Below are positions 4,480 through 61,379 of a stretch of DNA of 64,000 bases, one piece after another (positions within the stretch are counted from its first letter, which is position 1; every line of letters starts with the position of its first letter). Made by a program: the position numbers and the translations under genes. Origin of the DNA: an uncultured Candidatus Saccharibacteria bacterium (GTDB lineage: Bacteria; Patescibacteriota; Minisyncoccia; Phycocordibacterales; UBA9973); contig CAYXTA010000002.1 of assembly GCA_964468315.1 (NCBI GenBank), positions 319 to 64,318 on the forward strand. Reading direction: 5' to 3'. The notes beneath the pieces are model-generated. The model was given only the letters and a program-made list of their open reading frames with translations. It made no database searches and was not told where the DNA came from.

Positions 4480-5715
4480 TTATAAAATAAAGCTCTTGTT
4501 ACGCTTTTCTTTATGGTATTTAATAGCGAATCTATGAGCTTCGCTATTTGCGAGTAAAATATCTTTCTTTAATTTCGGATCAGCAGAGAGAATCATCTTT
4601 GCTTTATGTTTATCGTCTTTCACTACAGCAGAAACTGGGATTTTCAAATTATATTCTTTAAGAATTTTAAGCGCGACATTTCTCTGTGCTGTACTTCCAT
4701 CGACAACAATCAAATCCGGCATTTGCCATTCTGTGTGTTTAAAACGACGAGTAAGCATTTCAGAAAGTGCACCAGTATCATTTGAGCTAGTATAATTTTT
4801 TATTATAAATTTTCTGTATTCATTTTTCGCCGGCTCACCATCATGAAGTACAACCATTACACCAACCATATTCTTACCACTCATATGCGCAACATCATAC
4901 GCTTCAACCCTAAATACTTCACGAATAGGAACTTTTTCGAGCTGGTCTGGTGACTTCCCCCGAGGACCCGAGAAAAAGTTCCTATTCGTGAAGCTATCTT
5001 CTTTAATCAAAGAAACGTCTTGAATATGTTGTAATGCAAAAATCTGTCTCTTTATCTCCCCTGCTTTTTCGAAAGCATGAGCTTTTGCATACATTTTCAT
5101 TTCTTTCTCAAGATTCTTTAATATTGATTTTTTCTTACCTTCAAAAAGTAATTTTATATTTTTTATATTTTGAAATATTATTTCTTTCTGATCTGGAATT
5201 AGTTTTATTTGACGATAAAATTCATATGAACCTTTAATACGAGATTTTTCATCAAGAAATGGAAATATTTTTCTTATTAAATTAAGTGCTTCTTTCAACT
5301 GTCCGCCATTTGGAAAAGGACCATAGATTTTTGAATAATTTTTTTGTTCTAGATTTCTACCGCGAACGATGATAACTTTCGGCATCTCATCTTTTGTAAT
5401 ACAAACATAATTAAAACTCTTATCATCTTTTTCTTTCGTATTGTAATACGGCTGATGTTTTTTAATTAAATTCGCTTCTAAAATAAGCGCTTCGAGGACG
5501 CTGTCTGCTTCAGTCCATTTGACGGCATCTGCCTTAAAAACCATATCTAAAATGAGTGGTCCACGAGTGTTGATGATATCCTTGCCGAAATAGCTTTTTG
5601 TTCTGTCTTTCAAAGACGTCGCTTTGCCGATATATAAAATATCTTTCCCTTTCAAGAAAAAGTAGACTCCTGGCCGATCTGGAATATTGAATTTTTTGAG
5701 TTCTTGACTTTGCAT
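4480..5715 (-). CDS. uvrC: Excinuclease ABC subunit C, compact form with no C-terminal HhH region evident.
   Basis: 411 aa. The N-terminal GIY-YIG reads 'PGVYFFLKG...YIGKATSLKDRTKSYF'. The C-terminal UvrC endonuclease (RNase H-like) region is present ('VDGSTAQRNVALKIL'). It contains one in-frame GC-rich element (4943..4972). Confidence 0.85.
   Translation of the reverse strand: MQSQELKKFNIPDRPGVYFFLKGKDILYIGKATSLKDRTKSYFGKDIINTRGPLILDMVFKADAVKWTEADSVLEALILEANLIKKHQPYYNTKEKDDKSFNYVCITKDEMPKVIIVRGRNLEQKNYSKIYGPFPNGGQLKEALNLIRKIFPFLDEKSRIKGSYEFYRQIKLIPDQKEIIFQNIKNIKLLFEGKKKSILKNLEKEMKMYAKAHAFEKAGEIKRQIFALQHIQDVSLIKEDSFTNRNFFSGPRGKSPDQLEKVPIREVFRVEAYDVAHMSGKNMVGVMVVLHDGEPAKNEYRKFIIKNYTSSNDTGALSEMLTRRFKHTEWQMPDLIVVDGSTAQRNVALKILKEYNLKIPVSAVVKDDKHKAKMILSADPKLKKDILLANSEAHRFAIKYHKEKRNKSFIL
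4943..4972 (+). repeat. GC-rich repeat element copy 1 (subtype A), in frame inside uvrC.
   Basis: tggtctggtgacttcccccgaggacccgag. It is near-identical to the copies at 12457 and 17154. It encodes ...SGPRGKSPDQ... within UvrC. Confidence 0.6.
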
Positions 5716-5770
5716 AAGTATTATAGTATCATATTTAACAGAATAAACAATTTTTTAAAAAATAAGCAAA

Positions 5771-5950
5771 ATGAAAACATTCAACTGGACAGCTATGTCC
5801 GAACAAATGAAAAATTCTTCTTTAAAGAGCGTAAAAAATGAAGGAGAACTTGAAGCAGAGAACTTTATTGATGCTTCAAAACAAATAATTCAGATTCAGG
5901 AAATCCGTGGTGAAGCAAAGAAAATCACAATTACAATTGAAGAAAAATAG
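5771..5950 (+). CDS. Small hypothetical protein (59 aa) between uvrC and uvrA.
   Basis: ATG at 5771, stop at 5948-5950, reading MKTFNWTAMSEQMKNSS...EIRGEAKKITITIEEK. A hairpin plus T8 terminator follows immediately (5966..5999). It is below the 60-aa cutoff of the ORF track. Confidence 0.3.
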   Translation: MKTFNWTAMSEQMKNSSLKSVKNEGELEAENFIDASKQIIQIQEIRGEAKKITITIEEK

Positions 5951-5965
5951 CCACAGAGAACTAAG

Positions 5966-5999
5966 AGTTAGAAGCAGGGATTAAGGTCCTTGCTTTTTT
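5966..5999 (+). terminator. Rho-independent terminator after the small ORF.
   Basis: aagcaggg-attaa-ggtccttgctt imperfect stem followed by tttttttt. It abuts the uvrA stop on the opposite strand. Confidence 0.45.
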
Positions 6000-8603
6000 T
6001 TATTTCCTCAAAACCTTCTTCAAATACTTTCCTGTATACGATTTCGGAGTATTGGCCACTTCTTCAGGCGTGCCTTTTGCAATGAGTGTACCTCCTTTCA
6101 AACCACCTTCAGGACCAAAGTCTAGTAAGTAATCGGATGATTTTATCAAATCCATATTGTGTTCGATAACGATAACACTGTGCCCTTTTTGTACTAGTTT
6201 CTCCAAGACATTTATTAAATTCACAACATCATCATAATGCAATCCCACAGTCGGCTCATCGAGCAAGTAAACAGTCTTTTCTAAATATGGTCGGAATAAC
6301 TCACTAGAAACTTTAACTCTTTGTGCTTCCCCACCAGAAAGAGTCGTCGCAGATTGACCAAGTTTCACATAACCTAAGCCAACATCGATGAGTGTTTTCA
6401 TACGATCATAGATAGCTGGAATCTCATAGAAGAAAACAACAGCTTCTTCAATGGTCATCTCAAGAACTTCATGAATATTTTTCTTTTTGTATTTTACTTT
6501 TAGAGTTTCTTTATCGAATCTTTTTCCTCCACAAACATCACAAGTGACATACACTGTCGGTAAGAAATGCATTTCGACAGCTATCTCACCATTACCTTCA
6601 CATGCCTCACAGCGACCTCCACCAGAAGTTGATTTAACATTAAAAGAAAAACGATTTGATTTCCATCCTCTGAAACGTGCTTCTTCTGTTTCAGCAAACA
6701 TATCACGAATAAAAGTAAAAGATCCAGTGTACGTGGCAATGTTTGATCTTGGTGTGCGACCTATTGGGGATTGGTCGATAAGCACGACACGTTGCACATA
6801 TTCACTTCCAGTAAAACTTGCGCAATTAAATGTCTGATTACTTCTATATTTTCTCTCAAGTCTTGCTTGAAGATTTTTGTACAAAATTTCATACATAAAA
6901 GAAGATTTACCAGAACCAGAAACTCCTGTGATAGAAACAAGTCTACCGAGTGGAATTTCTGCATTCAAATTTTTTATATTAAAAACTTTTCCGCCAACAA
7001 CTTTTAATTTTCCTTTATCATTGTCTCTTCGTTTATCAGGAATAGCCACTTTCAATTCCCCACGCAAATATCCTATTGTACGAGATTTACTATCATTCTT
7101 TTTTGCAGTTAAAAGATCATCGAGATAATCTGCAACGATAACTTCCCCACCGTGGCGTCCAGCTTTCGGACCAATGTCGACGATATAATCGGAAGAATAG
7201 ATTGTGTCTTCATCATGTTCAACAACAATGATAGTATTTCCTAAATCACGCAAATCAAGAAGTGTTTTTATAAGTCTTTCATTGTCACGCTGATGAAGAC
7301 CTATCGTAGGTTCATCAAGCACATAGAGTGCACCGACGAGTCGTGAGCCAAGCTGTGAAGCAAGTCGTATACGTTGTGCTTCCCCACCAGAGAGCGTATT
7401 TGCACGACGATCGAGTGATAAATATTCAAGGCCGACATTTAAAAGGAATTGCACACGAGCATTTATTTCTTTCATTAATACTCCGGAAATCTCTTGTTCT
7501 TTTTTTGTCATTTTAAGTGTTGTAAAAAATTCTCCCGCATCTTCAGCAGAAAGCGCGATCGCTTCGATAATATTTTTTCTATTTTTTCCTTCGCCAATAA
7601 ATACATTCAATGCTTCAGGTCGAAGACGTAAACCTTTACATGTATCACAAGCATCATCACCGAACATATGTTTTGTTCCGAGACCATGACAACTTTCACA
7701 AGCACCATATGGACTATTCCAAGAGAAAAGCCTTGGCTCTATTTCAGGAAAAGAAAATCCATCTTTCGGACAAGAGAATTTGGCAGAAAGCATTGATTCT
7801 TCTTTGTTTACTACAACACTCACTAAACCATCAGACTCGAGCAATGCTCGCTCTACTGATTCAGAAAGTCGCATTTCAGAATCTTTCGTATCTTTCACAA
7901 AAAATTCATGTGCAGAAAATTCATCGACAAGAACTGCGATGTCGTGTTTTTTTGTCTTTGAAAGATCTATACGCTCACGAAGTTCTTTTATAACTCCATC
8001 GATACGGACTTTTGTATAACCCTTACCAAGAAGATCGTAGAGTAATTGATAATATTCTCCTTTTCTTCCACGCACCATCGGTGCAAAGATTTGTATTTTT
8101 GTATCATCAAACTCTACGCCCATAACTTTCTTTTTCTTTCCTGAAAGACTTTTTATTTTTTCTAATACGAAATAAATTATTTCTTCATTTGAAAGTTTTT
8201 TTATTTCATCTCCACAAGTAAGACAATGTGGTTTACCAATACGCGCATATAAAACACGAAGGTAATCATAAACTTCTGTAATAGTTGCCACAGTTGAACG
8301 AGGATTATTTGAACGGGATTTCTGATCGATAGAAATAGCAGGAGAAAGACCATGGATCTCATCCACATCAGGCTTTGCCATTTGTTTTAAAAATTGTCGT
8401 GCGTATGAAGAAAGTGATTCGACATATCTGCGTTGTCCTTCGGCAAATATAGTATCGAAAGCAAGTGATGATTTACCTGAACCAGAAAGCCCAGTGAAAA
8501 CAATCATCTTCCCTCGAGGCATTTCTACGGTGATGTTCTTCAAGTTATGTGTCCTTGCACCTTTCACTATTATTTTGTCTTGTTTTTCTATATCTTTTTT
8601 CAT
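6000..8603 (-). CDS. uvrA: Excinuclease ABC subunit A.
   Basis: 867 aa with two ABC ATPase modules (GLSGSGKSS / GVSGSGKSS Walker A, two LSGGE signatures) and Zn-finger Cys clusters. Confidence 0.95.
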
Positions 8604-8694
8604 AATAAAACTTTAAACACCCATCCGCTCGCGCTTATGGGTATGTGTATTAATTTGTATAAGTATTATAGCACAAAATTGGGAAATAAGAAAA

Positions 8695-10776
8695 TTATTT
8701 TACAAGCCTATCTTTCAAGATTTTAATCTCATCGCGGAGAATTGCGGCGGTTTCGAAGTCGAGTGCTTTTACCGCTTCAGACATTTGACGCTCTTTAAGT
8801 TTTACGAGTTTACTTGGATTTTTTGCAAAAAGCTTTGCATCGAGATTTAGCTCAGCTGATACGGTTTTATCATGCAAGCTATCGAGCTCTTCAGTAATGT
8901 CATGAATTTTCTTTAAAATAGTTTTTGGAGTAATGCCATTTTTTTTGTTATACGCTATCTGTGTTTCTCTTCTTCTGTTCGTCTCCCCCATAGCACGCTC
9001 CATAGAACCAGTAATACTATCTGCGTACAGAATAACTCTACCAGCAACATTTCTAGCTGCACGGCCGATCGTTTGGATGAGCGACGTCTCACTACGAAGA
9101 AATCCTTCTTTGTCAGCATCAAGAATTCCAATCAAAGATACTTCTGGCAAATCGAGTCCTTCACGAAGTAAGTTAACACCAACTAAAATATCGAACTTTC
9201 CTTTTCGAAATTCAGTAAGGATTTTTATACGCTCGATAGTTTTAATATCACTATGAACATATTCTGATTTTATTTTTTTATCTTTGAGATATGCAGATAA
9301 ATCTTCTGCCATTTTCTTGGTGAGTGTCGTCGCTATTACTCGCCCGCCTTTTTTTATTTCAACTTCGGCTTCTTTGATAAAATCCTGCACTTGGCCAGGA
9401 TAAGGCTGAAAATTCTTTTTCTGAGAAAGTCTGGCCGAGCTATTGCGAGGAGAACCGAGGACTTTTGAAGAAGATGAATTTTCGGCAGAACTTTCAGCCA
9501 AAACAGGTCGCACTTCAAGCAATGGATCAATAAGTCCAGTAGGACGGATTATTTGTTCAACGATTTGTTCACTCTCTTTTCTTTCCACTTCAGAAGGTGT
9601 CGCAGAAACATAAATAACTTGCCCAATTCTTTTTTCAAATTCATCATACTTAAGTGGGCGATTATCTTTCGCACTTGGTAATCGAAAACCGTGTTCGACG
9701 AGTGTATTTTTTCTTGAAGCATCACCTGCATACATACCTCTTACCTGCGGAAGGGTTACGTGTGATTCGTCTATAATAGTTAGGAAATCTTTTCCAAAAT
9801 ATGAAATCAATGTCTCTGGTGCTTCACCAGGTTTTTTACCTGAAAGAATTCTAGAATAATTTTCTATACCAGAACAATAACCAACTTCACGAAGCATCGC
9901 TATGTCATACATTGTTCTTCTCTTAATACGCTCAGCTTCCAAAAGTTTCCCTTCTTTATCAAATTTTTTAAGTTGAATATTCAACTCTTGTTTTATATCT
10001 TTAATAGCTTTTTCTAATTTCTTTTTATTTGTAATGAAATGTTTTGCTGGAAAAATAAAAATACTTTTTTCTTCATCTAAAATTTTTGAACTCACTGGGT
10101 CAATTTTCAAAATCCTTTCCACTTTATCACCAAATTCAACATTATAAACAAAAGTATCAGCAACAGGCATTATCTCAACTTTGCTTCCCATTGCACGAAA
10201 AGTACCCGGAGTGAGGTCTGCATTTGTACGTTCAAAATGCATTTTTATAAGTCTGGTCAATAAATCTGTTCTTGTGACTTTATCTCCTTTTGCAATCTGT
10301 AAATTCTCTTCTTGGTATTCTTCTGGACTTCCTAAACCATAAATACAAGAAACTGAAGCAACGATAATAACATCTTTGCGAGTAAGTAATGCTTGAGTAC
10401 TAGCGTGACGCAAACGATCTATCTCTTTATTTATCTGTGCATCTTTTTCTATAAAAGTATCTGTAGTAGGCATATATGCTTCCGGCTGATAATAGTCGTA
10501 ATATGAAACAAAATAATGCACAGCATTTTCTGGAAAGAATGCGCGGAATTCTTGCGCAAGTTGAGCTGCGAGAGTTTTATTGTGAGCAATTACTAAAGTT
10601 GGTTTATTTATTTTTTGTATAACATTTGCGATGGTGAATGTTTTACCACTTCCTGTCACACCCAAAAGTGTCTGCTTGTGCATACCTTTTTTCAAACCAT
10701 CAAGCAAACTTTTTATTGCCTTTGGTTGGTCACCTGCTGGTTCAAATGGAAGTTTTAAATCAAATGTATTTTTCAT
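8695..10776 (-). CDS. uvrB: Excinuclease ABC subunit B.
   Basis: 693 aa with Walker A 'GVTGSGKTF', helicase motifs, a C-terminal UvrB/UvrC interaction region 'EAVKALDFETAAILRDEI' and the 'PTGLIDPLLEVRPV' motif. It carries a roughly 30-aa insertion right after EVRPV that includes the GC-rich element. Confidence 0.95.
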   Translation of the reverse strand: MKNTFDLKLPFEPAGDQPKAIKSLLDGLKKGMHKQTLLGVTGSGKTFTIANVIQKINKPTLVIAHNKTLAAQLAQEFRAFFPENAVHYFVSYYDYYQPEAYMPTTDTFIEKDAQINKEIDRLRHASTQALLTRKDVIIVASVSCIYGLGSPEEYQEENLQIAKGDKVTRTDLLTRLIKMHFERTNADLTPGTFRAMGSKVEIMPVADTFVYNVEFGDKVERILKIDPVSSKILDEEKSIFIFPAKHFITNKKKLEKAIKDIKQELNIQLKKFDKEGKLLEAERIKRRTMYDIAMLREVGYCSGIENYSRILSGKKPGEAPETLISYFGKDFLTIIDESHVTLPQVRGMYAGDASRKNTLVEHGFRLPSAKDNRPLKYDEFEKRIGQVIYVSATPSEVERKESEQIVEQIIRPTGLIDPLLEVRPVLAESSAENSSSSKVLGSPRNSSARLSQKKNFQPYPGQVQDFIKEAEVEIKKGGRVIATTLTKKMAEDLSAYLKDKKIKSEYVHSDIKTIERIKILTEFRKGKFDILVGVNLLREGLDLPEVSLIGILDADKEGFLRSETSLIQTIGRAARNVAGRVILYADSITGSMERAMGETNRRRETQIAYNKKNGITPKTILKKIHDITEELDSLHDKTVSAELNLDAKLFAKNPSKLVKLKERQMSEAVKALDFETAAILRDEIKILKDRLVK
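9428..9463 (+). repeat. GC-rich repeat element copy 2 (subtype B), in frame inside uvrB.
   Basis: agtctggccgagctattgcgaggagaaccgaggact. It shares gtctggccgagc...gaggagaaccgaRgac with the smc copy. It encodes ...LGSPRNSSARLSQ.... Confidence 0.6.
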
Positions 10777-10867
10777 CGAACATATAGTATAACAAAATTT
10801 AAAACCATTGACAAATAAGGATTTTATATGCTATATTTTGTATAAATAAACCTTAAAAACTTAAGAA

Positions 10868-11443
10868 ATGAAAAAAATAATTCTCTTTATCGTACTTGGG
10901 ATATATTCCATTACGACAAACGCGCAATTAATAAATGCGTATAATCCTACTGACACCGTAAAGCTCAACGAGATGATGTTAAACAACTACAACTCAAATC
11001 TTTATGGGGATGTACAAAAAATCAAATTACCAAACAAAGGGAAAAGGGGTTTTAAAAAAATAAACATATTAAAAATAAAGAAAGATAGTACTGTATTCGA
11101 AACCTTTCTTACTATAGACGAGATTACTCAAGCAAACAGAGAAAGATTGAATCAAGGTTATACTACAATAAAATTTGAAACTACAGCAAAAGCTACTATC
11201 TATGAATTAAAAGAATTGCCTGATTTTTATTATGTTGAAATCAAAGCGAGCACAAATGCCAAAGCCTACAATATTGCTTTTAGTAAAGATAAAGAAAATG
11301 TATATCAAAAAGATTCTTGGAGAAAAGGATTTATACGAAAAGTAGATATTGAAAATAGTAAAACTTTTCCCGGATTATATAACAATTTACTTGGGCTAAA
11401 AGTTAAAACAGAATTATTTAATACATGGCTAATAACAAATTAG
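10868..11443 (+). CDS. Hypothetical secreted protein.
   Basis: 191 aa with an N-terminal signal-peptide-like 'MKKIILFIVLGIYSITTNAQ'. No recognisable domain. Confidence 0.55.
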   Translation: MKKIILFIVLGIYSITTNAQLINAYNPTDTVKLNEMMLNNYNSNLYGDVQKIKLPNKGKRGFKKINILKIKKDSTVFETFLTIDEITQANRERLNQGYTTIKFETTAKATIYELKELPDFYYVEIKASTNAKAYNIAFSKDKENVYQKDSWRKGFIRKVDIENSKTFPGLYNNLLGLKVKTELFNTWLITN

Positions 11444-11449
11444 CAACAA

Positions 11450-11486
11450 AAAAACTTCCACTATATTGTGGAAGTTTTTTATTTTT
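11450..11486. terminator. Bidirectional hairpin terminator.
   Basis: aaacttccac-tatatt-gtggaagttt followed by a T-run. It sits between convergent genes 10868..11443 (+) and 11486..11821 (-). Confidence 0.55.
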
Positions 11487-11821: not shown

Positions 11822-11855
11822 AGGTTTATATTTTAATGTATTTTTTCCTATTATA

Positions 11856-13133
11856 CTATGCTTTATAATTTTTCAAAAACTCTTCTTTAAATTCAAAAAA
11901 AGTATCATCAAGTATTGTTTGGCGAATTTTAGCAACAAGAGAAACGATGAAATGAAGATTGTGTATTGAAGCAAGTGTACCAGCGAGCATTTCTTTGCCA
12001 TGAAAAAGATGTGCTATATATGCACGAGTATAATTTTTACAACTATAACATTCACAATCATTTTCAACTGGGGAAAAATCTTCTCTATATTTTGCATTCG
12101 TAATAATAATCTTCCCTGTTTTTGTATATAAAGTTCCATTTCTACCAAGTCGTGTAGGTAAGACGCAGTCGAAAAGATCTACACCGTTTTCAATACCCAT
12201 AAAAAGATCTTCCGGTTCACCAATACCGAGCAAGTGCCGTGGCTTTTCTTCCGGCAAAATTTCATTTACCCATTTCACAGCAGTAGACATATCTTCTTTT
12301 GCGAAAGATCCACCAATACCAAAACCATCAAAACTTTTTCCATCTACATTCATTTCAGAAATTATTTTTGCGGATTTTTTTCTTAAATTCTCTTCCCTAC
12401 CACCCTGTACTATTCCAAATAAAGCTTGTTCAAGATGCGAAATTTGTTCAGACGAATGGTCTGGCTGACTTCCCCCGAGGACCTGAGTGTGAGCAAATTT
12501 CGCATCTTCTAATTTTTTATGTTCTTCTAAACATCTTTTCGCCCATGCATGAGTACGATCAAGTGCTTCTTCTTGATATTTCACATCTTCGGCTGGTGAA
12601 GTACATTCATCAAAAGCAAAAATAATATCTGCACCAAGATTGTGTTGGATTTGAATTGATTTCTCTGGAGTAATGTAATGAATAGATCCATCTAAATGTG
12701 ATTTAAAAGAAACTCCATCTTGCCCAATCTTTGCTAGACGAGGTGCATCAGAATCATCAAATCTTTCTGGAATCATAAGTGAAGGATCAGTAATTTTTAA
12801 AACTTTCGACATATCTTTGCCATAAGCAGCACCGAGTGAGAATACTTGAAACCCTCCACTATCAGTCATAGTAGGACCAGACCAATTCATAAATTTTCCT
12901 AAGCCTCCAGCTTTTGCCACAATTTCATCTCCTGGTTGTAAAAATAAATGATAAGTATTTGCAAGTACAACTTGAGCAGAAGCATTTAAAACTTGTTCTG
13001 GGTTTAATGATTTCACAGTTGCTTTTGTTCCTACAGTAACAAAAGCCGGAGTCTGTATATCTCCATGAGGAGTACTTAGAATTCCGACTCTACCCAAACT
13101 ATTTTTTAATTTTTTTTCTATTTTAAAATTCAC
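11856..13133 (-). CDS. tgt: Queuine tRNA-ribosyltransferase.
   Basis: 425 aa. 'LGRVGILSTPHGDIQTPAFVTVGT' and 'ALFGIVQGG' are present, with C-terminal Zn ligands 'CECYSC...H'. It contains an in-frame GC-rich element (12457..12487) just upstream of ALFGIVQGG. Confidence 0.9.
   Translation of the reverse strand: MNFKIEKKLKNSLGRVGILSTPHGDIQTPAFVTVGTKATVKSLNPEQVLNASAQVVLANTYHLFLQPGDEIVAKAGGLGKFMNWSGPTMTDSGGFQVFSLGAAYGKDMSKVLKITDPSLMIPERFDDSDAPRLAKIGQDGVSFKSHLDGSIHYITPEKSIQIQHNLGADIIFAFDECTSPAEDVKYQEEALDRTHAWAKRCLEEHKKLEDAKFAHTQVLGGSQPDHSSEQISHLEQALFGIVQGGREENLRKKSAKIISEMNVDGKSFDGFGIGGSFAKEDMSTAVKWVNEILPEEKPRHLLGIGEPEDLFMGIENGVDLFDCVLPTRLGRNGTLYTKTGKIIITNAKYREDFSPVENDCECYSCKNYTRAYIAHLFHGKEMLAGTLASIHNLHFIVSLVAKIRQTILDDTFFEFKEEFLKNYKA
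12457..12487 (+). repeat. GC-rich repeat element copy 3 (subtype A), in frame inside tgt.
   Basis: tggtctggctgacttcccccgaggacctgag. It encodes ...GGSQPDHSSEQ.... Confidence 0.6.
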
Positions 13134-13136
13134 TTT

Positions 13137-13940
13137 TTATATTTCTATTTGTACAAATTTTAATTCACTAATATTTACAGGGCTCACAAGTAATGCTTTT
13201 TGGAAAGAATCTCTAGGATCAGAAATAATGTCTTCCACAACTCCAAATATATAATTATGTATTCCAGGCAAATCCACTTCTGCACCTTTTGCAATTACAA
13301 AATCTCTTGGCATAGCGAGTTCAAAATTTCCTCCACCACGACCTACAGCTTGTACAAAAGTATCACGTCCAGAAACAACAACTTCGGTTTTTTCTCCAGA
13401 ACCTGAATACAAAACAACTTTTGATGTTTTAGAATATACTTCTGAAATTCTACCAATAGGAATATTACCCAAAGCAAAAACACGAGAACCGACTTTCACA
13501 CCATCACTCTCCCCTAAATCAATAATTAAACTTCCATACAAAGATTGATTTGTTTGTGACAAAATCCCAGCTAAAATAAATTTACTATTTTCATTTTTTC
13601 TTCCTAAAATTTCTTTTAATTTAATATTTTCATTTACCACAGAAGAATAATTTGCTCTGTCAGCTTCACTTTGTAATATTTGATTTTTTAAATTTTCATT
13701 TTCTTTCAATAAAGATTTTTTAGAAACAAAAAAAGATTTTGTTGAATATATACTATTTCCTAGAGAATTACCTAAAACAACAATAGGCCTAAAAACAAAA
13801 TGACTTGCTTTAGAAAGTCCTGTAAAAATTAAATTTCTACTTAAAAACAATAAAGCTACAATTAAAAATATTATTAAATAATTTAAAAACTTTCTTCTTT
13901 TTAATTTTTTATCTAGGAGGTAGCTCATCTTGATTACCAA
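13137..13940 (-). CDS. mreC: Rod-shape-determining protein MreC.
   Basis: 267 aa with an N-terminal TM, a coiled-coil segment, then the Gly-rich beta domains typical of MreC ('DLGESDGVKVGSRV', 'GRGGGNFEL'). It sits immediately downstream of mreB. Confidence 0.75.
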   Translation of the reverse strand: MVIKMSYLLDKKLKRRKFLNYLIIFLIVALLFLSRNLIFTGLSKASHFVFRPIVVLGNSLGNSIYSTKSFFVSKKSLLKENENLKNQILQSEADRANYSSVVNENIKLKEILGRKNENSKFILAGILSQTNQSLYGSLIIDLGESDGVKVGSRVFALGNIPIGRISEVYSKTSKVVLYSGSGEKTEVVVSGRDTFVQAVGRGGGNFELAMPRDFVIAKGAEVDLPGIHNYIFGVVEDIISDPRDSFQKALLVSPVNISELKFVQIEI

Positions 13941-14955: not shown

Positions 14956-14960
14956 AATTA

Positions 14961-16235: not shown

Positions 16236-16275
16236 ACTACCCTAAAAACTTAGGCTTTGCAAAAGCTTATGAAAT

Positions 16276-16304
16276 TTGCAAATAATTAAAATTATTGCTA
16301 TTAT
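16276..16304 (+). promoter_or_regulatory. Candidate sigma70-like promoter for rpsB-tsf.
   Basis: TTGCAA (16276-81), a 17-nt spacer, then TATTAT (16299-304), about 105 nt upstream of the rpsB ATG. The AT-rich background makes this weak evidence. Confidence 0.25.
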
Positions 16305-16410: not shown

Positions 16411-17118
16411 ATGTCAAAAAACGAAACAGTTACAATAGATAAAATGTTCGAAGCAGGAGCCCAATACGGCTACTCAAAAACAAGAAGACATCCTTCAGTT
16501 TCTTCTTATATTTTTACTACAAAAGCTAAAACAGATATCATAGACCTAGAGAAAACAGAAAAAATGCTTGCTGATGCTTGTGCATACGTAAAAGACCTTG
16601 GTGCTCGAAACAAGACTATTCTTTTTGTTGGTACAAAACCTGAAGCTCGTGAAGCTATCAAGATGTCTGCAGAATCTATCAATATGCCATACGTTATCGA
16701 AAGATGGATCGGTGGAGCTATCAGTAATTTTAGTGAAATCAAAAAAAGAATAGCTGAACTTGAAAATTACAAAGTTGAAAACGAAAAAGGTGAACTACAA
16801 AAATACACAAAGAAAGAAAGACTCGTTCTCGCTAAAAAAATGGAAAAATTAGATAAATATTATTCTGGTATGCTTGGTATCAAAAAAATACCAGATGCTA
16901 TGTTTATAATTGATGCTAAAAAAGAAGCTATTGCTGCTACAGAAGCTCGTAAATCAAATCTTCCAGTTATTGCCCTTACAAATACTGACTCAAACATAAA
17001 AGAACTATCTTTTGCTGTCGTTGCAAATGATGCTTCAAGAAACAGTATCAATGTCTTTGTTAAAGCTATAGCTGATGCTTACAAGCAAGGACAAATGTCA
17101 GTTGCTGATAAAAATTAA
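16411..17118 (+). CDS. rpsB: 30S ribosomal protein S2.
   Basis: 235 aa with S2 family sequence throughout and conserved rpsB-tsf synteny. Confidence 0.9.
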   Translation: MSKNETVTIDKMFEAGAQYGYSKTRRHPSVSSYIFTTKAKTDIIDLEKTEKMLADACAYVKDLGARNKTILFVGTKPEAREAIKMSAESINMPYVIERWIGGAISNFSEIKKRIAELENYKVENEKGELQKYTKKERLVLAKKMEKLDKYYSGMLGIKKIPDAMFIIDAKKEAIAATEARKSNLPVIALTNTDSNIKELSFAVVANDASRNSINVFVKAIADAYKQGQMSVADKN

Positions 17119-17126: not shown

Positions 17127-17206
17127 AACTCATTATGGGTTTTGTTTTTTAAGTGGTCTGGTGATTTCCCCCGAGGACCCGAAAAAAATAGAACCCATAA
17201 TGAGTT
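17127..17206. repeat. Intergenic inverted repeat, probably the rpsB-tsf terminator/attenuator, split by a GC-rich element.
   Basis: Perfect 15-bp arms aactcattatgggtt (17127-41) and aacccataatgagtt (17192-206). They extend imperfectly by about 10 nt of T/A-run. The 50-nt spacer contains element copy 4. Confidence 0.6.
17154..17182 (+). repeat. GC-rich repeat element copy 4 (subtype A), intergenic.
   Basis: tggtctggtgatttcccccgaggacccga, centred in the loop of the rpsB-tsf palindrome. Confidence 0.6.
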
Positions 17207-17215: not shown

Positions 17216-17992
17216 ATGTCACAAATAACAACAGAACTTGTAAAAGAATTAAGAGATGCTACTGGTGTCTCTGTTATGCAATGTAGAAAAGCTTTAGAAG
17301 AAGCTGAGGGTGATATGGCAAAAGCTGTAGCTATATTAAAAAAATCTAGTGGAGATATAGCTCTAAAGAAAGCTGGACGTGAAGCAAAAGACGGAGCAAT
17401 AGCTGTTGTACAAAAAGACGATAAAGCAATATTACTTGCACTTAATTGTGAGACTGATTTCGTAGCAAAAAACGAAGATTTCACTAACCTTCTTTCTTCC
17501 CTATCACAAAAAGCAATATCTGAAGGAGTGGAAAAAATGAAAACAGAAGCAAAAGATATGATAGATCCTATCATTCAAAAAACTGGTGAAAACATCCAAC
17601 TCGGTGAAACTTACGAAGTAACAGGAAGTACACTAGGATATTATGTACACAATGGTAAATCAGCAGTTATTGTTTCTCTTGAAGGTGGAACAATGGAACT
17701 TGCTAAAGACATAGCTATGCATGTCGCTGCAATGAAACCAGAATATATCACAGCTGACGAAATCACAGAAGAGATGAAAAATACAATGACAGAAATCTTC
17801 CAAAAAGAAGTTGCAAGTATCGATAAACCAGAAGAAATAAAAAATAAAATGCTTGAAGGAAAAATCTCAACATATTTCAAAGAAAAAACTCTCACAGAAC
17901 AACCTTTCATCAAAAATGGCGATGAAACTATTTCAAGTTTGCTTTCAAAAGCAAATGCAAAAATAAAAGAAGTAAAACGCTATTCAATATAG
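17216..17992 (+). CDS. tsf: Elongation factor Ts.
   Basis: 258 aa. The N-terminal UBA-like region reads 'LVKELRDATGVSVMQCRKALEEAEGDMAKAV', followed by the EF-Ts dimerisation core. Confidence 0.9.
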   Translation: MSQITTELVKELRDATGVSVMQCRKALEEAEGDMAKAVAILKKSSGDIALKKAGREAKDGAIAVVQKDDKAILLALNCETDFVAKNEDFTNLLSSLSQKAISEGVEKMKTEAKDMIDPIIQKTGENIQLGETYEVTGSTLGYYVHNGKSAVIVSLEGGTMELAKDIAMHVAAMKPEYITADEITEEMKNTMTEIFQKEVASIDKPEEIKNKMLEGKISTYFKEKTLTEQPFIKNGDETISSLLSKANAKIKEVKRYSI

Positions 17993-39346: not shown

Positions 39347-39449
39347 CTCCTCCTTTTTAAGGAGGAGCGCTCTTTAGAGCGAGGTGGTAATTTTATTTAG
39401 TACCACCCCGTCTCAGATTACTGAGCCACCCCTCCTAAATAAGGAGGGG
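39347..39449. promoter_or_regulatory. Cluster of four consecutive stem-loops in the divergent promoter region between the wHTH gene and ftsK.
   Basis: SL1 ctcctcc-tttttaa-ggaggag (39347-67). SL2 cgctc-ttta-gagcg (39368-81). SL3 ggtggta-attttatttag-taccacc (39383-407). SL4 cccctcc-taaataa-ggagggg (39429-49). SL1 and SL4 are near-identical CCTCC/GGAGG palindromes. Confidence 0.4.
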
Positions 39450-39488
39450 AAGAAATACAAATTCAAATATGCTAAAATATATTTATAT

Positions 39489-41681
39489 ATGGCAAAAAAA
39501 GAAATTAAAAAACAAAAAAATTCTACAGAAAAAATAGAATCTTTTGGTAAATTAAAAACTGAAACGAAACACGGAATATGGGCTGTTGTTTTTTTTGTTT
39601 TAGCATTGTTCTTGATTTTATCTTCGTTTGGAATTGCAGGTGTCGCTGGTAAATTTTTCTACAAAATTTTCTCTTACTTACTTGGTGTTGGTTATGGATT
39701 GTTACCGATACTTTTGATGATGCTTGGTTACTCTTTTGTGAAATCTGAAAAACCAGATATCGGAGCAGGAAGAACACTTAGTGCAATTTTATTTTTAATA
39801 TCAGGTCTTGGACTTTTCGACATCGCTTCAAAGAATCATGCAGGAGGAATTATTGGAAAATTTACAGCGTCTCCCCTCATCGGACTTTTTGATATTTATG
39901 CAAGTATTATTTTCCTCGGAGCACTACTCATCATCTCAATACTTATGATGTTCGATGCACGCCCAACATTGCTTCCATATATAGAAAAATTCTTTACAAT
40001 TTTCAAGAAAAAAACTTCAGAACTTGCAATAGATAATGATGAAGAAATCGATGCAGAAATTGGTACAGAAAAAGACCCCGAAGAAGACGAAGAAGTACCC
40101 GAAGAAAAACCTCAAAAAGAAATTAAAAAAGAGAAAATAAAAGATAAGAAAGATGAGGAAGAATTGACTCCAAATCCAGCAGGAAAATATATCTCGCACG
40201 CATACGTTCCTCCACCACTTTCTTTGCTTGAAGAAGACAAAGGAAAACCAAATACAGGAGACATAAAAGCAAATGCAAATATCATAAAACGCACACTTCA
40301 GAATTTCGGTATTGAAGTAGAAATGGATGAAATAACAGTCGGGCCAACGGTCACTCGTTATGCATTAAAACCAGCCGAAGGTGTAAAACTTTCTCGTATT
40401 GTTGGTCTTCAAAGTGACTTGGCTCTCGCTCTCGCAGCTCACCCAATACGTATCGAAGCACCTATCCCTGGTAAGTCACTCGTAGGTATTGAAATACCAA
40501 ACAAAGTAAAATCAACAGTCGGTCTTGCAACACTCCTTAAAGATGAGAAATTCCAAAATTCTGCAAAACCACTTACAGTCGCACTCGGCCGTGGAATATC
40601 TGGTAAAGCTACTTTTGCAAACTTAGCAAAGATGCCTCATGCACTTATCGCTGGTACTACAGGATCTGGAAAGTCAGTTACTATACACTCTGTCATAACA
40701 TCACTCCTATATAGAAACGGTCCAGATGATTTGAAATTCATAATGGTTGACCCAAAACGCGTCGAGTTAACACTTTACAACAAGATACCTCACTTACTCA
40801 CTCCTGTTATTACTGACGCAAAGAAATCAATCCTTGCTCTTAAATGGGCTGCGAAAGAAATGGATAGAAGATACGATATCTTACAAGAAATGTCAGTGCG
40901 AGATATAGGCTCTTATCACGAAAGTTTTGCTGGTAAAACAAGAATAGTTAAAAACGAACAAGGAGAAAAGGTAGAAAAAGAAAATGAGAGAATGCCTTAT
41001 ATCGTAATAATCATCGACGAACTTGCAGATATTATGACTGCTTATCCTCGTGAACTTGAAAGTGCCATAGTCCGTCTTGCTCAAATGTCTCGTGCTGTTG
41101 GAATACATCTTATTCTTTCTACACAACGCCCTGAAGTAAATGTCATTACAGGACTTATTAAAGCAAACATTCCTGCTCGTGTTGCCCTCAAAGTGTCTTC
41201 AGGTATAGATTCTCGTACAATTCTCGACGCAACAGGTGCAGAAAAGCTCCTCGGTGCTGGAGATATGCTTTATTCTTCTGGAGAAGCTCAACCAGAACGT
41301 CTACAAAGTGCCTTTATTTCTGAAGGAGAAGTTAAAAAAGTGGTAAAATATCTAGCAGATAGTTATGCAGATGAAGTAACAGCTGAGATTTCCCTTTCTG
41401 GAGAAAGTATTTCAAGAGATAAAAGTATATTTGAAAGCAATTTAGACGAAGAATCAGGCGAAGAAGATGAAATGTACGAAGAAGCTAGAAGTGTTATAAT
41501 AGAAGCAGGTAAAGCTAGTACTTCATATTTACAAAGAAAGCTTGGACTTGGTTATGCTCGTGCAGCAAGACTCATAGACATGCTTGAAGAACGCGGAGTA
41601 GTAGGACCAGGAAGTGGATCAAAACCAAGAGAAGTATTAGAAAAAGTAAACCGTGATGAAAGTGGTAACAATATAATATAA
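39489..41681 (+). CDS. ftsK: DNA translocase FtsK/SpoIIIE.
   Basis: About 730 aa from the ATG at 39489 (the ORF track's 39384 is a GTG start inside the hairpin region). It has N-terminal TM helices, an acidic/Lys-rich linker, a motor domain with Walker A 'GTTGSGKSV' and Walker B 'IVIIIDELAD', and a C-terminal gamma (KOPS-binding wHTH) domain 'SYLQRKLGLGYARAARLIDMLEERGVV'. Confidence 0.9.
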   Translation: MAKKEIKKQKNSTEKIESFGKLKTETKHGIWAVVFFVLALFLILSSFGIAGVAGKFFYKIFSYLLGVGYGLLPILLMMLGYSFVKSEKPDIGAGRTLSAILFLISGLGLFDIASKNHAGGIIGKFTASPLIGLFDIYASIIFLGALLIISILMMFDARPTLLPYIEKFFTIFKKKTSELAIDNDEEIDAEIGTEKDPEEDEEVPEEKPQKEIKKEKIKDKKDEEELTPNPAGKYISHAYVPPPLSLLEEDKGKPNTGDIKANANIIKRTLQNFGIEVEMDEITVGPTVTRYALKPAEGVKLSRIVGLQSDLALALAAHPIRIEAPIPGKSLVGIEIPNKVKSTVGLATLLKDEKFQNSAKPLTVALGRGISGKATFANLAKMPHALIAGTTGSGKSVTIHSVITSLLYRNGPDDLKFIMVDPKRVELTLYNKIPHLLTPVITDAKKSILALKWAAKEMDRRYDILQEMSVRDIGSYHESFAGKTRIVKNEQGEKVEKENERMPYIVIIIDELADIMTAYPRELESAIVRLAQMSRAVGIHLILSTQRPEVNVITGLIKANIPARVALKVSSGIDSRTILDATGAEKLLGAGDMLYSSGEAQPERLQSAFISEGEVKKVVKYLADSYADEVTAEISLSGESISRDKSIFESNLDEESGEEDEMYEEARSVIIEAGKASTSYLQRKLGLGYARAARLIDMLEERGVVGPGSGSKPREVLEKVNRDESGNNII

Positions 41682-51657: not shown

Positions 51658-51661
51658 ATAT

Positions 51662-53584: not shown

Positions 53585-53602
53585 AAGTTATATTATAACA
53601 CA

Positions 53603-54190: not shown

Positions 54191-54249
54191 AGTTTTTTAC
54201 TAATGACTAATTATACCAAAAAATCATAGATTTATGCTATATTGTCTAT

Positions 54250-58142: not shown

Positions 58143-58233
58143 AAAAATCCCCCTGCATTTTCATACAGAGGGAATTTCAATTCGCACAAAGTCCAAAGGG
58201 TCAAAAGAGACCGAAGTGAACAAAAATAAAGTA

Positions 58234-58914
58234 CTACTTGCGAACACCCGCGAACCACCAGTAGTCACCCCAGTCACCGTCATAACGGCGGACACTCAGG
58301 TCCCGCTCGTCAACATCGCGGCGGAAAACGGCATAACACCACTTTCCATCTCCATCTTTCCATTGAGTTCCGTTAGGATGCTCATCGGCAAAAGCAGGGT
58401 CAGCTTCGTTTACTGCGGCTTGTGAATACGGATCGGCAGGTTTTAATCCACGCAATGCATATTCTTTTTCCAGGTCATCCATACTTATCTGGCGTCCGAT
58501 TTTAAAGAAGATAACTTCTGTTTCTTCGGTTTCGCCTTTGGGTATTGTTTTCAGCACGCTGTCGTCCACATACTGGTTTCTGCCAGTAGCTTTCAGAGCT
58601 TCTTTGGCAGAACGGTTGCGGTTTACTTTTACAACGCGGATAATCATATTCGAGATTGCTTCAACGCGTTTGCGGATTACAGCAAATAGCTCACCTGCAA
58701 GTTCGGGGATGCCCAGAACTTGTTGTATAAGATTGCTGGGAAGCTCGGCTTTGTGCTTCTGCAATTTTGCGTTTAACAACTCTTTTAACTTACCGATTTG
58801 ACCCTCGGTAATGGGTTCTGATGGGGTTATGGTCTTTTCCATAGCGTCATAGATTTGATTTGATTGCGTCCCGCAATAGAGGGCTAGACAGTCGTAGTCA
58901 TAGCTAGGAAACAT
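58234..58914 (-). CDS. Hypothetical protein encoded in a compositionally foreign GC-rich island.
   Basis: 226 aa from the ATG at 58914 (the ORF track starts one codon earlier at a TTG). Local GC is markedly higher than the flanks. The C-terminus is Trp/Asp/Gly-rich ('WKDGDGKWCYAVFRR...YDGDWGDYWWFAG'). No family recognised. Confidence 0.55.
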   Translation of the reverse strand: MFPSYDYDCLALYCGTQSNQIYDAMEKTITPSEPITEGQIGKLKELLNAKLQKHKAELPSNLIQQVLGIPELAGELFAVIRKRVEAISNMIIRVVKVNRNRSAKEALKATGRNQYVDDSVLKTIPKGETEETEVIFFKIGRQISMDDLEKEYALRGLKPADPYSQAAVNEADPAFADEHPNGTQWKDGDGKWCYAVFRRDVDERDLSVRRYDGDWGDYWWFAGVRK

Positions 58915-59042
58915 CAAATGATTTAATGTCTTTTAGCTATGACTACAAGTAGTACTTATTGGGAAAGAACCTTAATTACTAGGATTAAGTATAGCATAGA
59001 TGGTGGTAAAAGTCAATGATAAATACTCTTGTAAATTAAGCC

Positions 59043-61379
59043 TTATTTTGCAATAGCTGCAGCTTCTTCGAATTTCACTGAGAGGAGTTTAGAACCTCCA
59101 TCAGAGCCAACGGTAACGCCGTAGAGGACACCAGCACGAGACATAGTCTCACGATTGTGAGTGACGACGATGAGCTGTGAATGGTGCGAGAGTTTTTCGA
59201 GCATATCTCCATATTTACGAGAATTCGCTTCGTCGAGCGCTGCGTCTGTCTCGTCGAGGACGAGGAATGGCGGAGGGTTCACTTGTGACACAGCAAAAAG
59301 AAGTGCGATAGATGTGAGTGATCTTTCCCCTCCTGAAAGAGCTTGAAGTTCTTTCACTTTTTTATGTGGAAGAGAAACACTGATTTCAATACCATGTTCA
59401 AAGACAATAGCTTCTTCGTCTATTTCTTCTTCATCTTTCTTGCCTCTTTTTTGTTCTGCGACAACAGAAAGAAATGCAGAACCTCCCCCGAACATAAGAG
59501 CAAAGAATTCTTGGAATTCTTTATTGATTTTTGTAACACCAAGTTTAAATTCAGTATCTATCTTTTCTTTAAGATCGAGCATTAGCTTACGAAGTGATTC
59601 TATGCTCATAGAAAGATCTTCCATTTCTTTTGCAAGGAATGCATCTCTATCTCTCACCTCTTCAAATTCTTTTAATACTTCAGTTGTACCTCCAAGTCCA
59701 GCATCTTCGAGTTTTATTTTAATGCGTTCGATTTTTCTACGACGTTCTTCTTGATTTTCTCTTGATTCATCGATATTTTCTATTTGAAAATTCTTATATG
59801 ACAAAATATCTGCACCGAGAAATATTGAACCTTCTCGTATTTGATCTTCAAAGCTAGTCATAAGGCGAGCGTAACTTTCTTCTTTTATAGCAATAGTATT
59901 TAAAGACGAAATGAGTTCTTGTTTTCTAACAGCAAAATCAAATTTGTTTTTTTGTATTTCTTGAAAAGAAAAATTATCTTTTTGTATTTCATTTTTCAAA
60001 TTTTCTAATGCTTGAGCAAACTTCCCTTCTTCATCTTCTATCTTACTCATCTCTGCGAGAATTTCTGTTTGAGTATTTTTCAAATTTTCTAGATTATTTT
60101 GATTCTCAAAAGCATCAGTTATGTGTTCTTGCGAATGGTCTGGCCGAGCGGAGTGAGGAGAACCGAAGACCTGAGCAGGAGCACTAACTGATGCTGTTCT
60201 AATAAAGCGATCCAAGATATCTTTTATCTTTCCTAACATCGGTGCAATGTTTTCTAAAACATCTATGTACATAGCTTCTTCTATATATTCATTTAACTCT
60301 TTATAGAAAGAATCAAAATCTTCTTTTGAAATACTTACTTTGTCGTTTGTATGTTCTTTTACTTGAGTTTCATTATGTACAACTGGTGCGCGATTGCTTT
60401 CCATTTCTATCATAGCTTCTATGCGACCAAGTTTACGTGAAAGTTCACTTTTTATATTTCTTATTTCTGATATTTTCTTTTCAAGATCTCGTATTTCTAT
60501 ATTCTTTAAATTTTCAGTATTTGGTGTTGTATTTTCTATTCCTGATATTTTTCCAGAAATAACTTCAATTTCATTTTGAATACGCTTTTTATCTTCTAAA
60601 AAAGAAGTATTTTGATTTTCTAAATAAAGCGCTTCTCTTTTTAAATATTCACGAGAAAGATCAAGAAGTTCTATCTTTAGTTCTTTTGCTTTTTCTAATT
60701 TCTCTACTTGTTTACGCAAAAAATTAAGATGTGGAGCTATTTCTTTACGAAGAAGTGAAACTTCTTTCATATTGTTTGTAGTACGGTCAAGTTTACGCTC
60801 ACTTTCTTTTATTTTGTATTGATATATCTTGAGTCCGAGTGCATCTTCGATCATTTCTCTTCTGTCTTTCGCTGAAGCATTAAGTATTCTATCTGCTTCT
60901 CCTTGAGAAATAATATGGTGACCAGAAGAACCAATGTTCACAGATGAAAGCAAGGTCATAATATCTTTCAAACGAACTTCTGATCCATTGAGAGAATATT
61001 TATTTAAACCATCAGAAAAAACTTCACGAGAAACAGTAATGTGTTCGTAATTTAAATTTACTTTATCACCATTTTCATTTTCTAATTTAAAAACCTTATC
61101 AGTATTGTTGAAACAAATAGAAACAGAAGCACGAGAAGATTTTGGTAGTGTTTTTGAGCCTTTGAAAATAAGATCAAGCCCTGCTTTCCCACGCATTGAT
61201 TTGATGGATTGTTCACCAAGTACGAAACGTATCGCTTCTACGACATTAGACTTTCCAGATCCATTAGGACCAACAACAGATGTGATAGAACTTTGAAACT
61301 CTAAAGAAGTTTTTTTTGCGAAAGATTTGAAACCATTTATTTCTAAAGATTTAAGTCGCATAGAAATTAATCGAGCCAA
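59043..61379 (-). CDS. smc: Chromosome segregation SMC-family ATPase, short form.
   Basis: 778 aa. N-terminal Walker A 'GPNGSGKSN', long coiled-coil regions, C-terminal signature 'LSGGERSLTSIALLFAV' and Walker B 'FLVLDETDAALD'. It is about 400 aa shorter than canonical SMC. It contains one in-frame GC-rich element (60127..60166). Confidence 0.8.
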   Translation of the reverse strand: MARLISMRLKSLEINGFKSFAKKTSLEFQSSITSVVGPNGSGKSNVVEAIRFVLGEQSIKSMRGKAGLDLIFKGSKTLPKSSRASVSICFNNTDKVFKLENENGDKVNLNYEHITVSREVFSDGLNKYSLNGSEVRLKDIMTLLSSVNIGSSGHHIISQGEADRILNASAKDRREMIEDALGLKIYQYKIKESERKLDRTTNNMKEVSLLRKEIAPHLNFLRKQVEKLEKAKELKIELLDLSREYLKREALYLENQNTSFLEDKKRIQNEIEVISGKISGIENTTPNTENLKNIEIRDLEKKISEIRNIKSELSRKLGRIEAMIEMESNRAPVVHNETQVKEHTNDKVSISKEDFDSFYKELNEYIEEAMYIDVLENIAPMLGKIKDILDRFIRTASVSAPAQVFGSPHSARPDHSQEHITDAFENQNNLENLKNTQTEILAEMSKIEDEEGKFAQALENLKNEIQKDNFSFQEIQKNKFDFAVRKQELISSLNTIAIKEESYARLMTSFEDQIREGSIFLGADILSYKNFQIENIDESRENQEERRRKIERIKIKLEDAGLGGTTEVLKEFEEVRDRDAFLAKEMEDLSMSIESLRKLMLDLKEKIDTEFKLGVTKINKEFQEFFALMFGGGSAFLSVVAEQKRGKKDEEEIDEEAIVFEHGIEISVSLPHKKVKELQALSGGERSLTSIALLFAVSQVNPPPFLVLDETDAALDEANSRKYGDMLEKLSHHSQLIVVTHNRETMSRAGVLYGVTVGSDGGSKLLSVKFEEAAAIAK
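60127..60166 (+). repeat. GC-rich repeat element copy 5 (subtype B), in frame inside smc.
   Basis: tggtctggccgagcggagtgaggagaaccgaagacctgag, encoding ...FGSPHSARPDHSQ.... Confidence 0.6.

Follow-up and report, generated by a model that had tools for sequence, protein, structure and literature searches.

A candidate family of hairpin insertions with a constant core and copy-specific arms in housekeeping genes of Patescibacteria

The Rickettsia palindromic elements (RPE-1 to RPE-8, described by Ogata, Claverie and colleagues) are short, hairpin-forming palindromic repeats of a reduced and AT-rich genome; they have no transposase of their own and lie in spacers as well as in frame within conserved protein genes, where they are translated as an extra surface peptide. 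Five elements of comparable character, their translation being read from open reading frames (ORFs), are present in the 64,000-nucleotide stretch of an uncultured Candidatus Saccharibacteria bacterium analyzed here (contig CAYXTA010000002.1, positions 319 to 64,318; hereafter the window). The likeness is drawn from the description of the RPEs and not from their sequence, and the window belongs to another phylum. Whereas RPE copies are alike over their entire sequence, in the arms as well, the present elements combine a constant centre with arms specific to each copy, carry modular tips, appear to flip their cores in situ, and occupy sites that are shared across deep lineages. We consider, with moderate confidence, that the five are copies of a large, non-autonomous family of 75-100 bp hairpin insertions in Patescibacteria (Paceibacteria/Nomurabacteria-like), which is apparently undescribed. 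An initial annotation, made from the window sequence alone, had proposed a mobile, frame-preserving mini-element analogous to the RPEs and knew of no such family in genomes of the Candidate Phyla Radiation (CPR); the analogy is supported by the data presented below, and no description of the family was found in the literature on the CPR.

The GC clusters of yeast mitochondria and the double-hairpin elements of fungal mitochondria are also GC-rich, foldable islands in very AT-rich DNA; they are occasionally found in frame in genes (var1), are polymorphic between strains, and are suspected of spreading by recombination or strand switching. They are, however, organellar and mostly intergenic, without long, locus-specific AT-rich arms and without a constant bulged helix bearing variable tips. 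The repetitive extragenic palindromes (REPs) and bacterial interspersed mosaic elements (BIMEs) associated with RAYT, and the subterminal hairpins of IS200/IS605, resemble the present elements in being imperfect, bulged, GC-rich hairpins with conserved flanking bases; these are recognized as single-stranded DNA (ssDNA), and their orientation is related to replication, as it appears to be here. In contrast to the extragenic REPs, four of the five window copies and 49 of the 74 copies listed from metagenomes are intragenic, and no RAYT or TnpA gene was found in the window or recurs among the neighbors of other copies. The arms are the conserved part of REPINs but the variable part here, and the conserved inverted sequence is internal rather than terminal as in MITEs (miniature transposable elements that carry inverted repeats), with no insertion sequence or transposase in the window or the flanking loci. 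Integron attC sites likewise conserve structure over sequence, obtain strand choice from extrahelical bases, and vary in the length of their terminal structure; unlike them, the present elements lack R/L boxes, cassettes and a nearby integrase, and lie in housekeeping genes. A constant centre with free arms appears to reverse the conservation pattern of RPEs, MITEs and REPINs.

The five hairpins of the window and their scaffold

The window was scanned with a single pattern, GTCTGGN{8,22}CCGARGAC, which covers both motif subtypes (A and B) of the initial annotation. It matched five times, always on the + strand, where 100 dinucleotide shuffles led us to expect 0.00 matches; the GC-rich motifs are therefore present at every position originally given, in the uniform orientation reported and well above chance. 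No extra copies were found in the window by a relaxed scan for two half-sites with required flanking complementarity. The copies are irregularly spaced (4.9, 9.4, 12.4, 17.1 and 60.1 kb) at a density of about 1 per 13 kb; four lie within minus-strand ORFs, each of which stays open through its copy as had been claimed, and one lies in the rpsB-tsf spacer (Table 1). The unit had been taken to measure 30-40 nt, with a hairpin at the intergenic copy only. It is instead a 75-100 bp hairpin, and every one of the five copies caps a locus-specific, AT-rich inverted repeat of 22-27 bp, the arms of which are without similarity from one copy to another. The five elements rank among the eight most stable 100-nt folds of the window, their + strand having fold z-scores between -5.7 and -8.1, and this strand folds more stably than the - strand (for example, -36.1 against -19.6 kcal/mol).

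Table 1. Hairpin elements of the window. Positions are those of the 64,000-nucleotide stretch.
Element	Tip type	Extent	Strand	Arms	Core	Location
W1	A	4917..4993	+	4917-4938 / 4972-4993 (complementary 22/22)	4944-4968; GGTCTGG...CCGAGGACC	inside UvrC-like gene 4480-5715 (-)
W2	B	9405..9486	+	9405-9431 / 9460-9486	9428-9463; AGTCTGG-CCGAGCTATTGCGAGGAGAA-CCGAGGACT	inside uvrB 8695-10776 (-)
W3	A	12432..12508	+	12432-12453 / 12487-12508	12458-12483	inside tgt 11856-13133 (-)
W4	A	17127..17206	+	17127-17150 / 17183-17206	17155-17179	spacer between rpsB (16411-17118, +) and tsf (17216-17992, +)
W5	B	60111..60195	+	~60111-60133 / 60174-60195 (basal stem)	60137-60171; GGTCTGG...CCGAAGACC	inside smc 59043-61379 (-)

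Protein alignments show the whole hairpin to be extra sequence relative to the host protein. The window UvrB (E = 4e-238 to B. subtilis UvrB) carries an insert of 28 aa (amino acids) relative to its closest relatives and 32 aa relative to the B. subtilis protein; against the latter it comprises residues 426-457, that is window 9406-9501, which corresponds to the whole hairpin plus 15 nt. The insert follows EVRPV, as annotated. In an AlphaFold model of this UvrB (mean predicted local distance difference test score, pLDDT, of 68.5), residues 429-456 are coil with pLDDT below 50, with a strand on one side and the opening helix of the following domain on the other, and this predicted disorder agrees with the earlier view of the site as an insertion-tolerant linker. 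The position claimed for the Tgt insert also holds, W3 coinciding with Tgt residues 209-234 and ending directly before ALFGIVQGG. The peptides encoded by the genic copies had been described as similar in character, but the frame in which the core is translated differs between copies 1 and 3 (SGPRGKSPDQ versus VLGGSQPDH; the full peptide encoded at W1 is FTNRNFFSGPRGKSPDQLEKVPIREV), so conservation is at the level of the nucleotides and not of the peptide. Genic copies would then be translated as a variable, disordered linker, the sequence of which is set by frame and orientation. Two of the host proteins, the UvrC-like protein (411 aa) and SMC (778 aa), are markedly shortened in the window organism, the usual lengths being ~600 and ~1180 aa, and the RNase III gene (rnc, 61367-62062) overlaps the start of smc.

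The uniform orientation in the window, in bacteria that are thought to rely on DNA uptake, might suggest an uptake signal, or the repeats could be an artefact of assembly or adapters. DNA uptake sequences, however, are short words that occur about once per kb, whereas here there are five copies in 64 kb and the conserved feature is a fold with variable spacing. Contigs of four independent origins (JGI, Logan, ENA and NCBI) encode the exact window UvrB protein at the same locus, so that the element is not an assembly or adapter artefact, and the copies are internal to long contigs. Both the uptake alternative raised by the initial annotation and the artefact are hardly credible in view of these observations, and we regard them as effectively refuted.

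The organization of the scaffold was taken from the folds of the window copies and an alignment of 66 sequences, and is described on the strand that reads GGTCTGG. Outermost is an AT-rich basal stem of 14-28 bp, specific in sequence to each copy, which ends inwardly in T4-6 (5' arm) and A4-6 (3' arm). A loop follows in which 5'-YGAR-3' lies opposite 5'-YGAR-3' (a tandem G.A motif), a context that favours tandem sheared G.A pairs. Above it are a single R-Y pair with a bulge of 1-2 nt on the 5' strand; a constant 5-bp helix, GGUCU/GGACC, which includes a U.G pair; a GA bulge on the 3' strand followed by GG/CC; and finally the tip, of 8 to >50 nt. What the copies have in common is confined to the central 25-36 nt and the T/A-run junction. 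The annotated subtypes A and B both exist, but are merely two of more than ten tips on this one constant scaffold, and the closing helix (GGTCT/RGACC) that had seemed weaker in subtype A is present there as much as in B. Among the tips are short loops (TGACTTCCC, which is type A, and GGATTTTTT), tracts of pyrimidines (for example, CTCCTCGTCCTCCCTCAT), small helices (for example, C[C/T]GGG-ATAGGGA-CCC[G/A]G-AGAA), the type-B form CC-GA-GC...GC-GA-GG-AGAA, and nested hairpins of >50 nt. At locus L080 (~1142, motif strand) the 3' half of one copy is tandemly triplicated, CCGAGGACC CGAGGACC CGAGGACC, an arrangement that directly documents slippage at the constant core. Resemblances to SRP RNA domain IV, the hammerhead core, the K-turn and the sarcin-ricin loop were considered and are not borne out by the fold.

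The substitution patterns show pairing to be kept by compensatory change. At the junction R-Y pair, the metagenome matches listed have A-U in 39 cases, G-C in 22, G.U in 1 and A.C in 0, and the A-U and G-C states both occur with the same tip types. The orthologue of W1 at locus L027 has five differences in the stem, every one of which is compensated in the opposite arm, and the tip helix of W2 differs there by a C-G to U-A switch (GAG[C]UAUU[G]CGAGG against GAG[U]UUUU[A]CGAGG); further switches of this kind are found in tip helices across the family. In the basal stems of the metagenome matches listed, mismatches read on the GGTCTGG strand comprise 65 G.T against 20 A.C, a bias that indicates better folding of this strand. 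Pair counts were not taken from a single-register column alignment of the basal stems, in which the junction bulge shifts the register. The excess of G.T is present in antisense-genic (34:6), sense-genic (16:8) and intergenic (15:6) copies, so the asymmetry follows the core and not the host gene. Coding-strand composition is an insufficient explanation, since the excess persists in sense and intergenic copies, and a mutation bias of replication would give the opposite sign, namely an excess of A.C on the motif strand. Taken together, the covariation and the G.T excess show that the folding of one particular strand has mattered.

Distribution, hosts and orientation of the family

At least ~90 further copies were found in low-GC metagenome-assembled genomes (MAGs) of Patescibacteria and in metagenomes. 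The exact type-A pattern, searched in 185,579 species genomes, gave eight hairpin-flanked copies in five Patescibacteria MAGs, and additional copies were recovered with nhmmer. The metagenomes were searched with the scaffold pattern GGTCTGG-N8-30-CCGAGGACCYGAR, and the resulting set, thus collected through the constant core, comprises >119 listed loci as a lower bound. Among the matches listed, 74 are flanked by a hairpin; these lie on contigs of 31-48% GC and have AT-rich stems of 14-28 bp, and matches on high-GC contigs are without a flanking stem. A phage origin was rejected because the nine matches in viral_contigs are all high-GC chance hits without stems, and membership of Firmicutes was rejected because the 13 type-A matches in Oscillospiraceae encode VRLETSPEDIEGM in a conserved gene, with no hairpin, and are attributed to chance. 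The relatives of the window organism that could be named are MAGs assigned to Paceibacteria, Nomurabacteria, Minisyncoccia and the 'Patescibacteria group'.

Inspection of the 74 listed copies placed 49 of them inside ORFs of ≥150 codons that run through the element, and the remaining 25 at gene boundaries; no gene is split by a copy. All 49 genic copies are in frame and free of stop codons on whichever strand is coding. Their hosts function in translation and RNA modification (RsmA at eight loci, MnmA, Tgt, TruB, IleRS, ArgRS, PheT and RF1) and in DNA repair and replication (UvrA, UvrB, UvrC, UvrD, LigA, RecJ and PolA), together with SMC and IscS. With 31 copies antisense and 18 sense to the host gene, the antisense rule suggested by the window is only a tendency. 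The idea that the sense orientation is lethal, to which nine of nine early copies had pointed, is ruled out by this split and by flipped copies at orthologous sites. Some genes hold two elements, as is seen at L030 (1163-1189 and 1879-1947) and L014 (3561-3586 and 4201-4225): in the UvrB of P0022 the usual linker holds one element and the other lies near residue 225, and a 431-aa ORF at L014 contains two copies 640 nt apart.

The placement of these copies bears on whether the element acts as RNA. A transcript of the GGUCUGG strand might fold in a manner resembling a bulge-helix-bulge and be cleaved, excised or bound, yielding a small RNA or an RNA-level intervening sequence. As in archaeal bulge-helix-bulge introns, an outer and an inner stem are separated by a short helix with a bulge on each side, the two bulges being on opposite strands, in an order that, as read from the fold, matches this topology; the G.U-type pairs, the conserved U.G, the tandem G.A and the compensatory changes are typical of structured RNA; and rnc adjoins smc in the window. 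However, the sizes are 1-2/5/2 rather than the canonical 3/4/3 and the host is bacterial. Reading frames kept open on either strand argue against splicing and would be unnecessary if the element were excised, and the 31 antisense copies would need antisense transcription. No element reached the gathering threshold of an Rfam family in the window and eight loci, or in four sets searched in E-value mode; in the window and loci only tRNAs and one tmRNA reached threshold, and the elements received sub-threshold, generic hairpin matches. We judge a functional or processed RNA to be very unlikely. The Rfam searches also gave sub-threshold matches to RF03531, a C. difficile small RNA inside a helicase gene, at L067 1353-1446 (41 bits) and L101 1010-1105 (35 bits), the gathering threshold being 65; these adjoin the elements rather than coincide with them, and probably reflect coding conservation in a UvrD-like gene.

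Orientation was also compared with the probable direction of replication. The + strand of the window is C-rich at third codon positions (GC skew at these positions, GC3 skew, of -0.18 in + genes and -0.08 in - genes), and two thirds of the coding sequence lies on the - strand; by the usual rule this skew gives the + strand, which bears the motif, the composition of a lagging strand. The same sign of skew as in the window is shown by 14 of the 18 loci with genes on both strands. Neighboring copies are co-oriented in the window (5/5), at L027 (5/5) and L108 (3/3), and in the pairs at L048, L122, L141, L013, L014 and L030 (2/2 each), with L081 as the exception. Trinh and Sinden in 1991 reportedly found that the more stable hairpin is preferentially deleted when it lies on the lagging-strand template. 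We infer that the copies now present are survivors whose weaker strand faces that template.

Occupied, empty and flipped sites

Comparison of homologous genes shows that many lineages have the same housekeeping sites filled and that others, the closest relatives of the window organism among them, have them empty. The EVRP...YPGQ linker of UvrB was parsed in 102 homologues; 30 are empty, typically reading A-x-KKYPGQ, and 72 are filled by inserts of 10-60 aa, many of which show peptide signatures of the scaffold (for example, VLGSP...PDH and RSS...ARP). Among the UvrB homologues, a large family with the peptide 'SHSVLEGQ' may represent a sister scaffold, GTCCTGG...CCTCGAGGAC. The uvrB site is empty in the closest relatives (94-95% identity), and the empty allele at L026 reads CCAGGATATTTTTTATCAGC, the window having a net 84 additional bases at this point; the more distant L027 (92%) carries an orthologous type-B copy. 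A second pair of filled and empty alleles was found in the spacer upstream of ddl. At L028 (~1770-1900) uvrB contains three GC-rich mini-hairpins, which encode the peptide PRGKMKGG.

All four genic sites of the window are occupied in other lineages, that in smc by peptide similarity only, since the inserts at the aligned position of L143 and L155 were compared at the protein level. In tgt, L027 has a type-B element with other arms, and L123 has a flipped core with a pyrimidine-rich tip on homologous arms; in uvrB, L100 has a copy in sense orientation; and in uvrC, L027 has a truncated type B fused to a type A. W4 is conserved at L026, and is replaced at L027 (~3600-3720) by a diverged core, GTGGGTCCCCTGCC...CTCCGAGGGCGAAG, with unrelated arms. 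The uvrC gene of L026 holds an unrelated hairpin (~13350-13520) at the same site as W1.

The clearest series comes from RsmA, in which the element lies between DILxF and YKIIANIPYN in eight lineages, five of them sense and three antisense. Irrespective of the direction of the core, the arms can be recognized as homologous when placed in gene coordinates, and three tip types are represented. Sites in PheT, UvrD and MnmA behave in the same way, being common to several lineages with either core orientation and with different tips. These alignments show that, at a given site, the core can point either way and the tip can differ on arms that stay homologous, which indicates that sites persist or are re-used, that cores flip in place, and that tips are exchanged. 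The initial annotation had asked whether the inserts are lineage-specific indels, and this is so to the extent that very close relatives are without the uvrB copy; it does not hold at greater depth, where host proteins of ~70% identity still share the same kind of insert peptide at the same sites, an outcome that goes part of the way to what the annotation had named as a refutation.

Alignment of window 9250-9640 with L026 8547-8844 and L027 11144-11523 revealed a mosaic of identity. The window is 85-88% identical to L026 in uvrB and 95-96% in tgt and rpsB-tsf, and its identity to L027 is 86% in uvrB and ~75% elsewhere. This mosaic points to allele exchange, and suggests that the insert-bearing uvrB allele has moved by recombination.

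The retention of the core at orthologous sites in hosts ~70% identical, in any frame and orientation, could also be explained by a domesticated ssDNA or cruciform site of benefit to the host. A topoisomerase, or a nucleoid, junction-binding or recombination protein, would then recognize the constant bulged helix when the palindrome is extruded, in a manner similar to REP/BIME sequences of E. coli, and the elements would lie within genes because these genomes have almost no intergenic space. Strand-specific structural selection, the orientation bias relative to inferred replication, and the fact that no mobility gene was found in the window and flanking loci are all consistent with this explanation. 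However, presence varies between relatives that are 95% identical and the linker is empty in 30 of 102 UvrB homologues, the same sites are also taken by unrelated hairpin families, and the copies show no regular spacing along the window. We consider a domesticated site unlikely, and regard the element as selfish or near-neutral and not as a host function.

Mobility, origin of the arms and mode of spread

No transposase, integrase, reverse transcriptase or HUH domain was found among the proteins of the window. The 565 neighboring ORFs from ~0.6 Mb of flanking loci cluster into housekeeping families only, with no recurrent mobility enzyme. One basal stem, GCAAATTATTTTATTTCYGA...GAAAGAATATAATTTGC, recurs at a minimum of three different loci and in several MAGs (L005 7865-7889, L008 1264-1288, L021 3802-3826, L025 7918-7942 and L055 ~6285); it is found twice in the rplJ-rplL spacer and bears a different tip at L055. 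This recurrence indicates that in some lineages the whole hairpin propagates as a unit.

Such propagation would be expected of a classical MITE- or REP-type element mobilized in trans by a transposase encoded elsewhere, likely an HUH/Y1 enzyme as in IS200/IS605 or RAYT, with the bulged helix and YGAR flanks as its recognition and cleavage signals. The presence of the full hairpin at three or more loci in some genomes (the five loci listed above share the stem GCAAATTATTTTATTTC), the conserved imperfect GC-rich hairpin with its conserved flanking tetranucleotides, and the strand-specific folding with an orientation biased relative to replication would all be accommodated by this mechanism. It is opposed by the variable arms, by the intragenic position of two thirds of the copies, which is unlike that of REPs, and by the want of such a gene in the window or the flanking loci. 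Neither of the two comparisons of filled with empty sites, in which the alleles are AT-rich and 12-25% diverged, nor the flanks of 66 copies revealed a clear direct repeat or target-site duplication, and the same 66 flanks contain no conserved target tetranucleotide. We find mobilization of this classical type quite unlikely.

A search for donors of the arms in ~130 kb of the same and sister genomes gave only chance matches of 10-12 nt. An origin of the arms as an inverted duplication of the target was rejected for uvrB and tgt, because in these genes each of the two arms is additional to the host protein. It is possible in two other cases: in the spacer upstream of ddl the empty site is already a small AT palindrome, and in the uvrC copy of L027 an arm overlaps the truncated type-B tip. 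These two cases hint at fold-back copying or at insertion into the centres of palindromes, which uvrB and tgt do not simply fit.

An insertion family of non-autonomous hairpins, the reading we favour, could operate as follows. The element would exist at the DNA level as a palindrome that forms hairpins or cruciforms, would persist at permissive sites, and would spread between alleles and lineages by homologous recombination. Its centre may be exchanged or flipped by strand switching, or by recombination between the inverted arms and the constant core. Insertion at a new site would be rare and would probably proceed by a mechanism that depends on single strands, and the strand bias would result from preferential deletion of any copy that has its more stable strand on the lagging-strand template.

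Several observations weigh against this scheme. No transposition event, donor copy or target-site duplication was seen, and the direction of replication was deduced from GC3 skew alone. Within one genome the arms of non-orthologous copies bear no relation to one another, although an element of the classical copy-and-paste kind would be expected to retain them. Conservation of the core extends over deep lineages in any frame or orientation, which is more than a purely neutral passenger should show and implies either frequent homogenization between copies or a recognizing protein, of which none was identified; the metagenome set, having been found by means of the core, cannot itself gauge the conservation of that core. 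The depth of this conservation leaves real room for a recognizing protein or a host role. As a tentative alternative, the bulged helix may be the recognition module of an enzyme specific for ssDNA or cruciforms, giving a site-persistent hairpin 'homing' system, or the elements may be domesticated structural DNA signals in genes. A homing system would drive itself into conserved housekeeping genes and would flip and swap its centre, and the arms would be created or selected at each site, by fold-back copying or as guides or homology arms.

A large share of bacterial diversity belongs to Patescibacteria, and to our knowledge very little has been reported on their repeats and mobile DNA. If the elements are insertions of the kind we favour, streamlined genomes would tolerate structured DNA parasites in essential genes for repair, translation and tRNA modification and would retain them over long times, and the family would account for many lineage-specific protein 'insertions', with one UvrB linker filled in 72 of 102 homologues. 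A bulged centre that is constant, arms that are free, tips that are modular and cores that flip in place together point to a new way of making or maintaining palindromes. The inserts inflate the apparent divergence of proteins and can mislead gene callers and alignments; they could be used as strain-level markers, and they offer a natural test of the hairpin load that can be borne by the ribosome and the replication fork.

Two other foldable features were observed in the window. The most stable 100-nt fold of all, at 39351-39450, consists of four small GC-rich hairpins clustered at the 5' end of an FtsK-like ORF (39384-41681), and its sequence is unrelated to the scaffold family. At 58894-58946, at the start of the ORF 58234-58917, there is a near-perfect palindrome with 26-nt arms (85% complementary) around a 1-nt centre, without the GC core.

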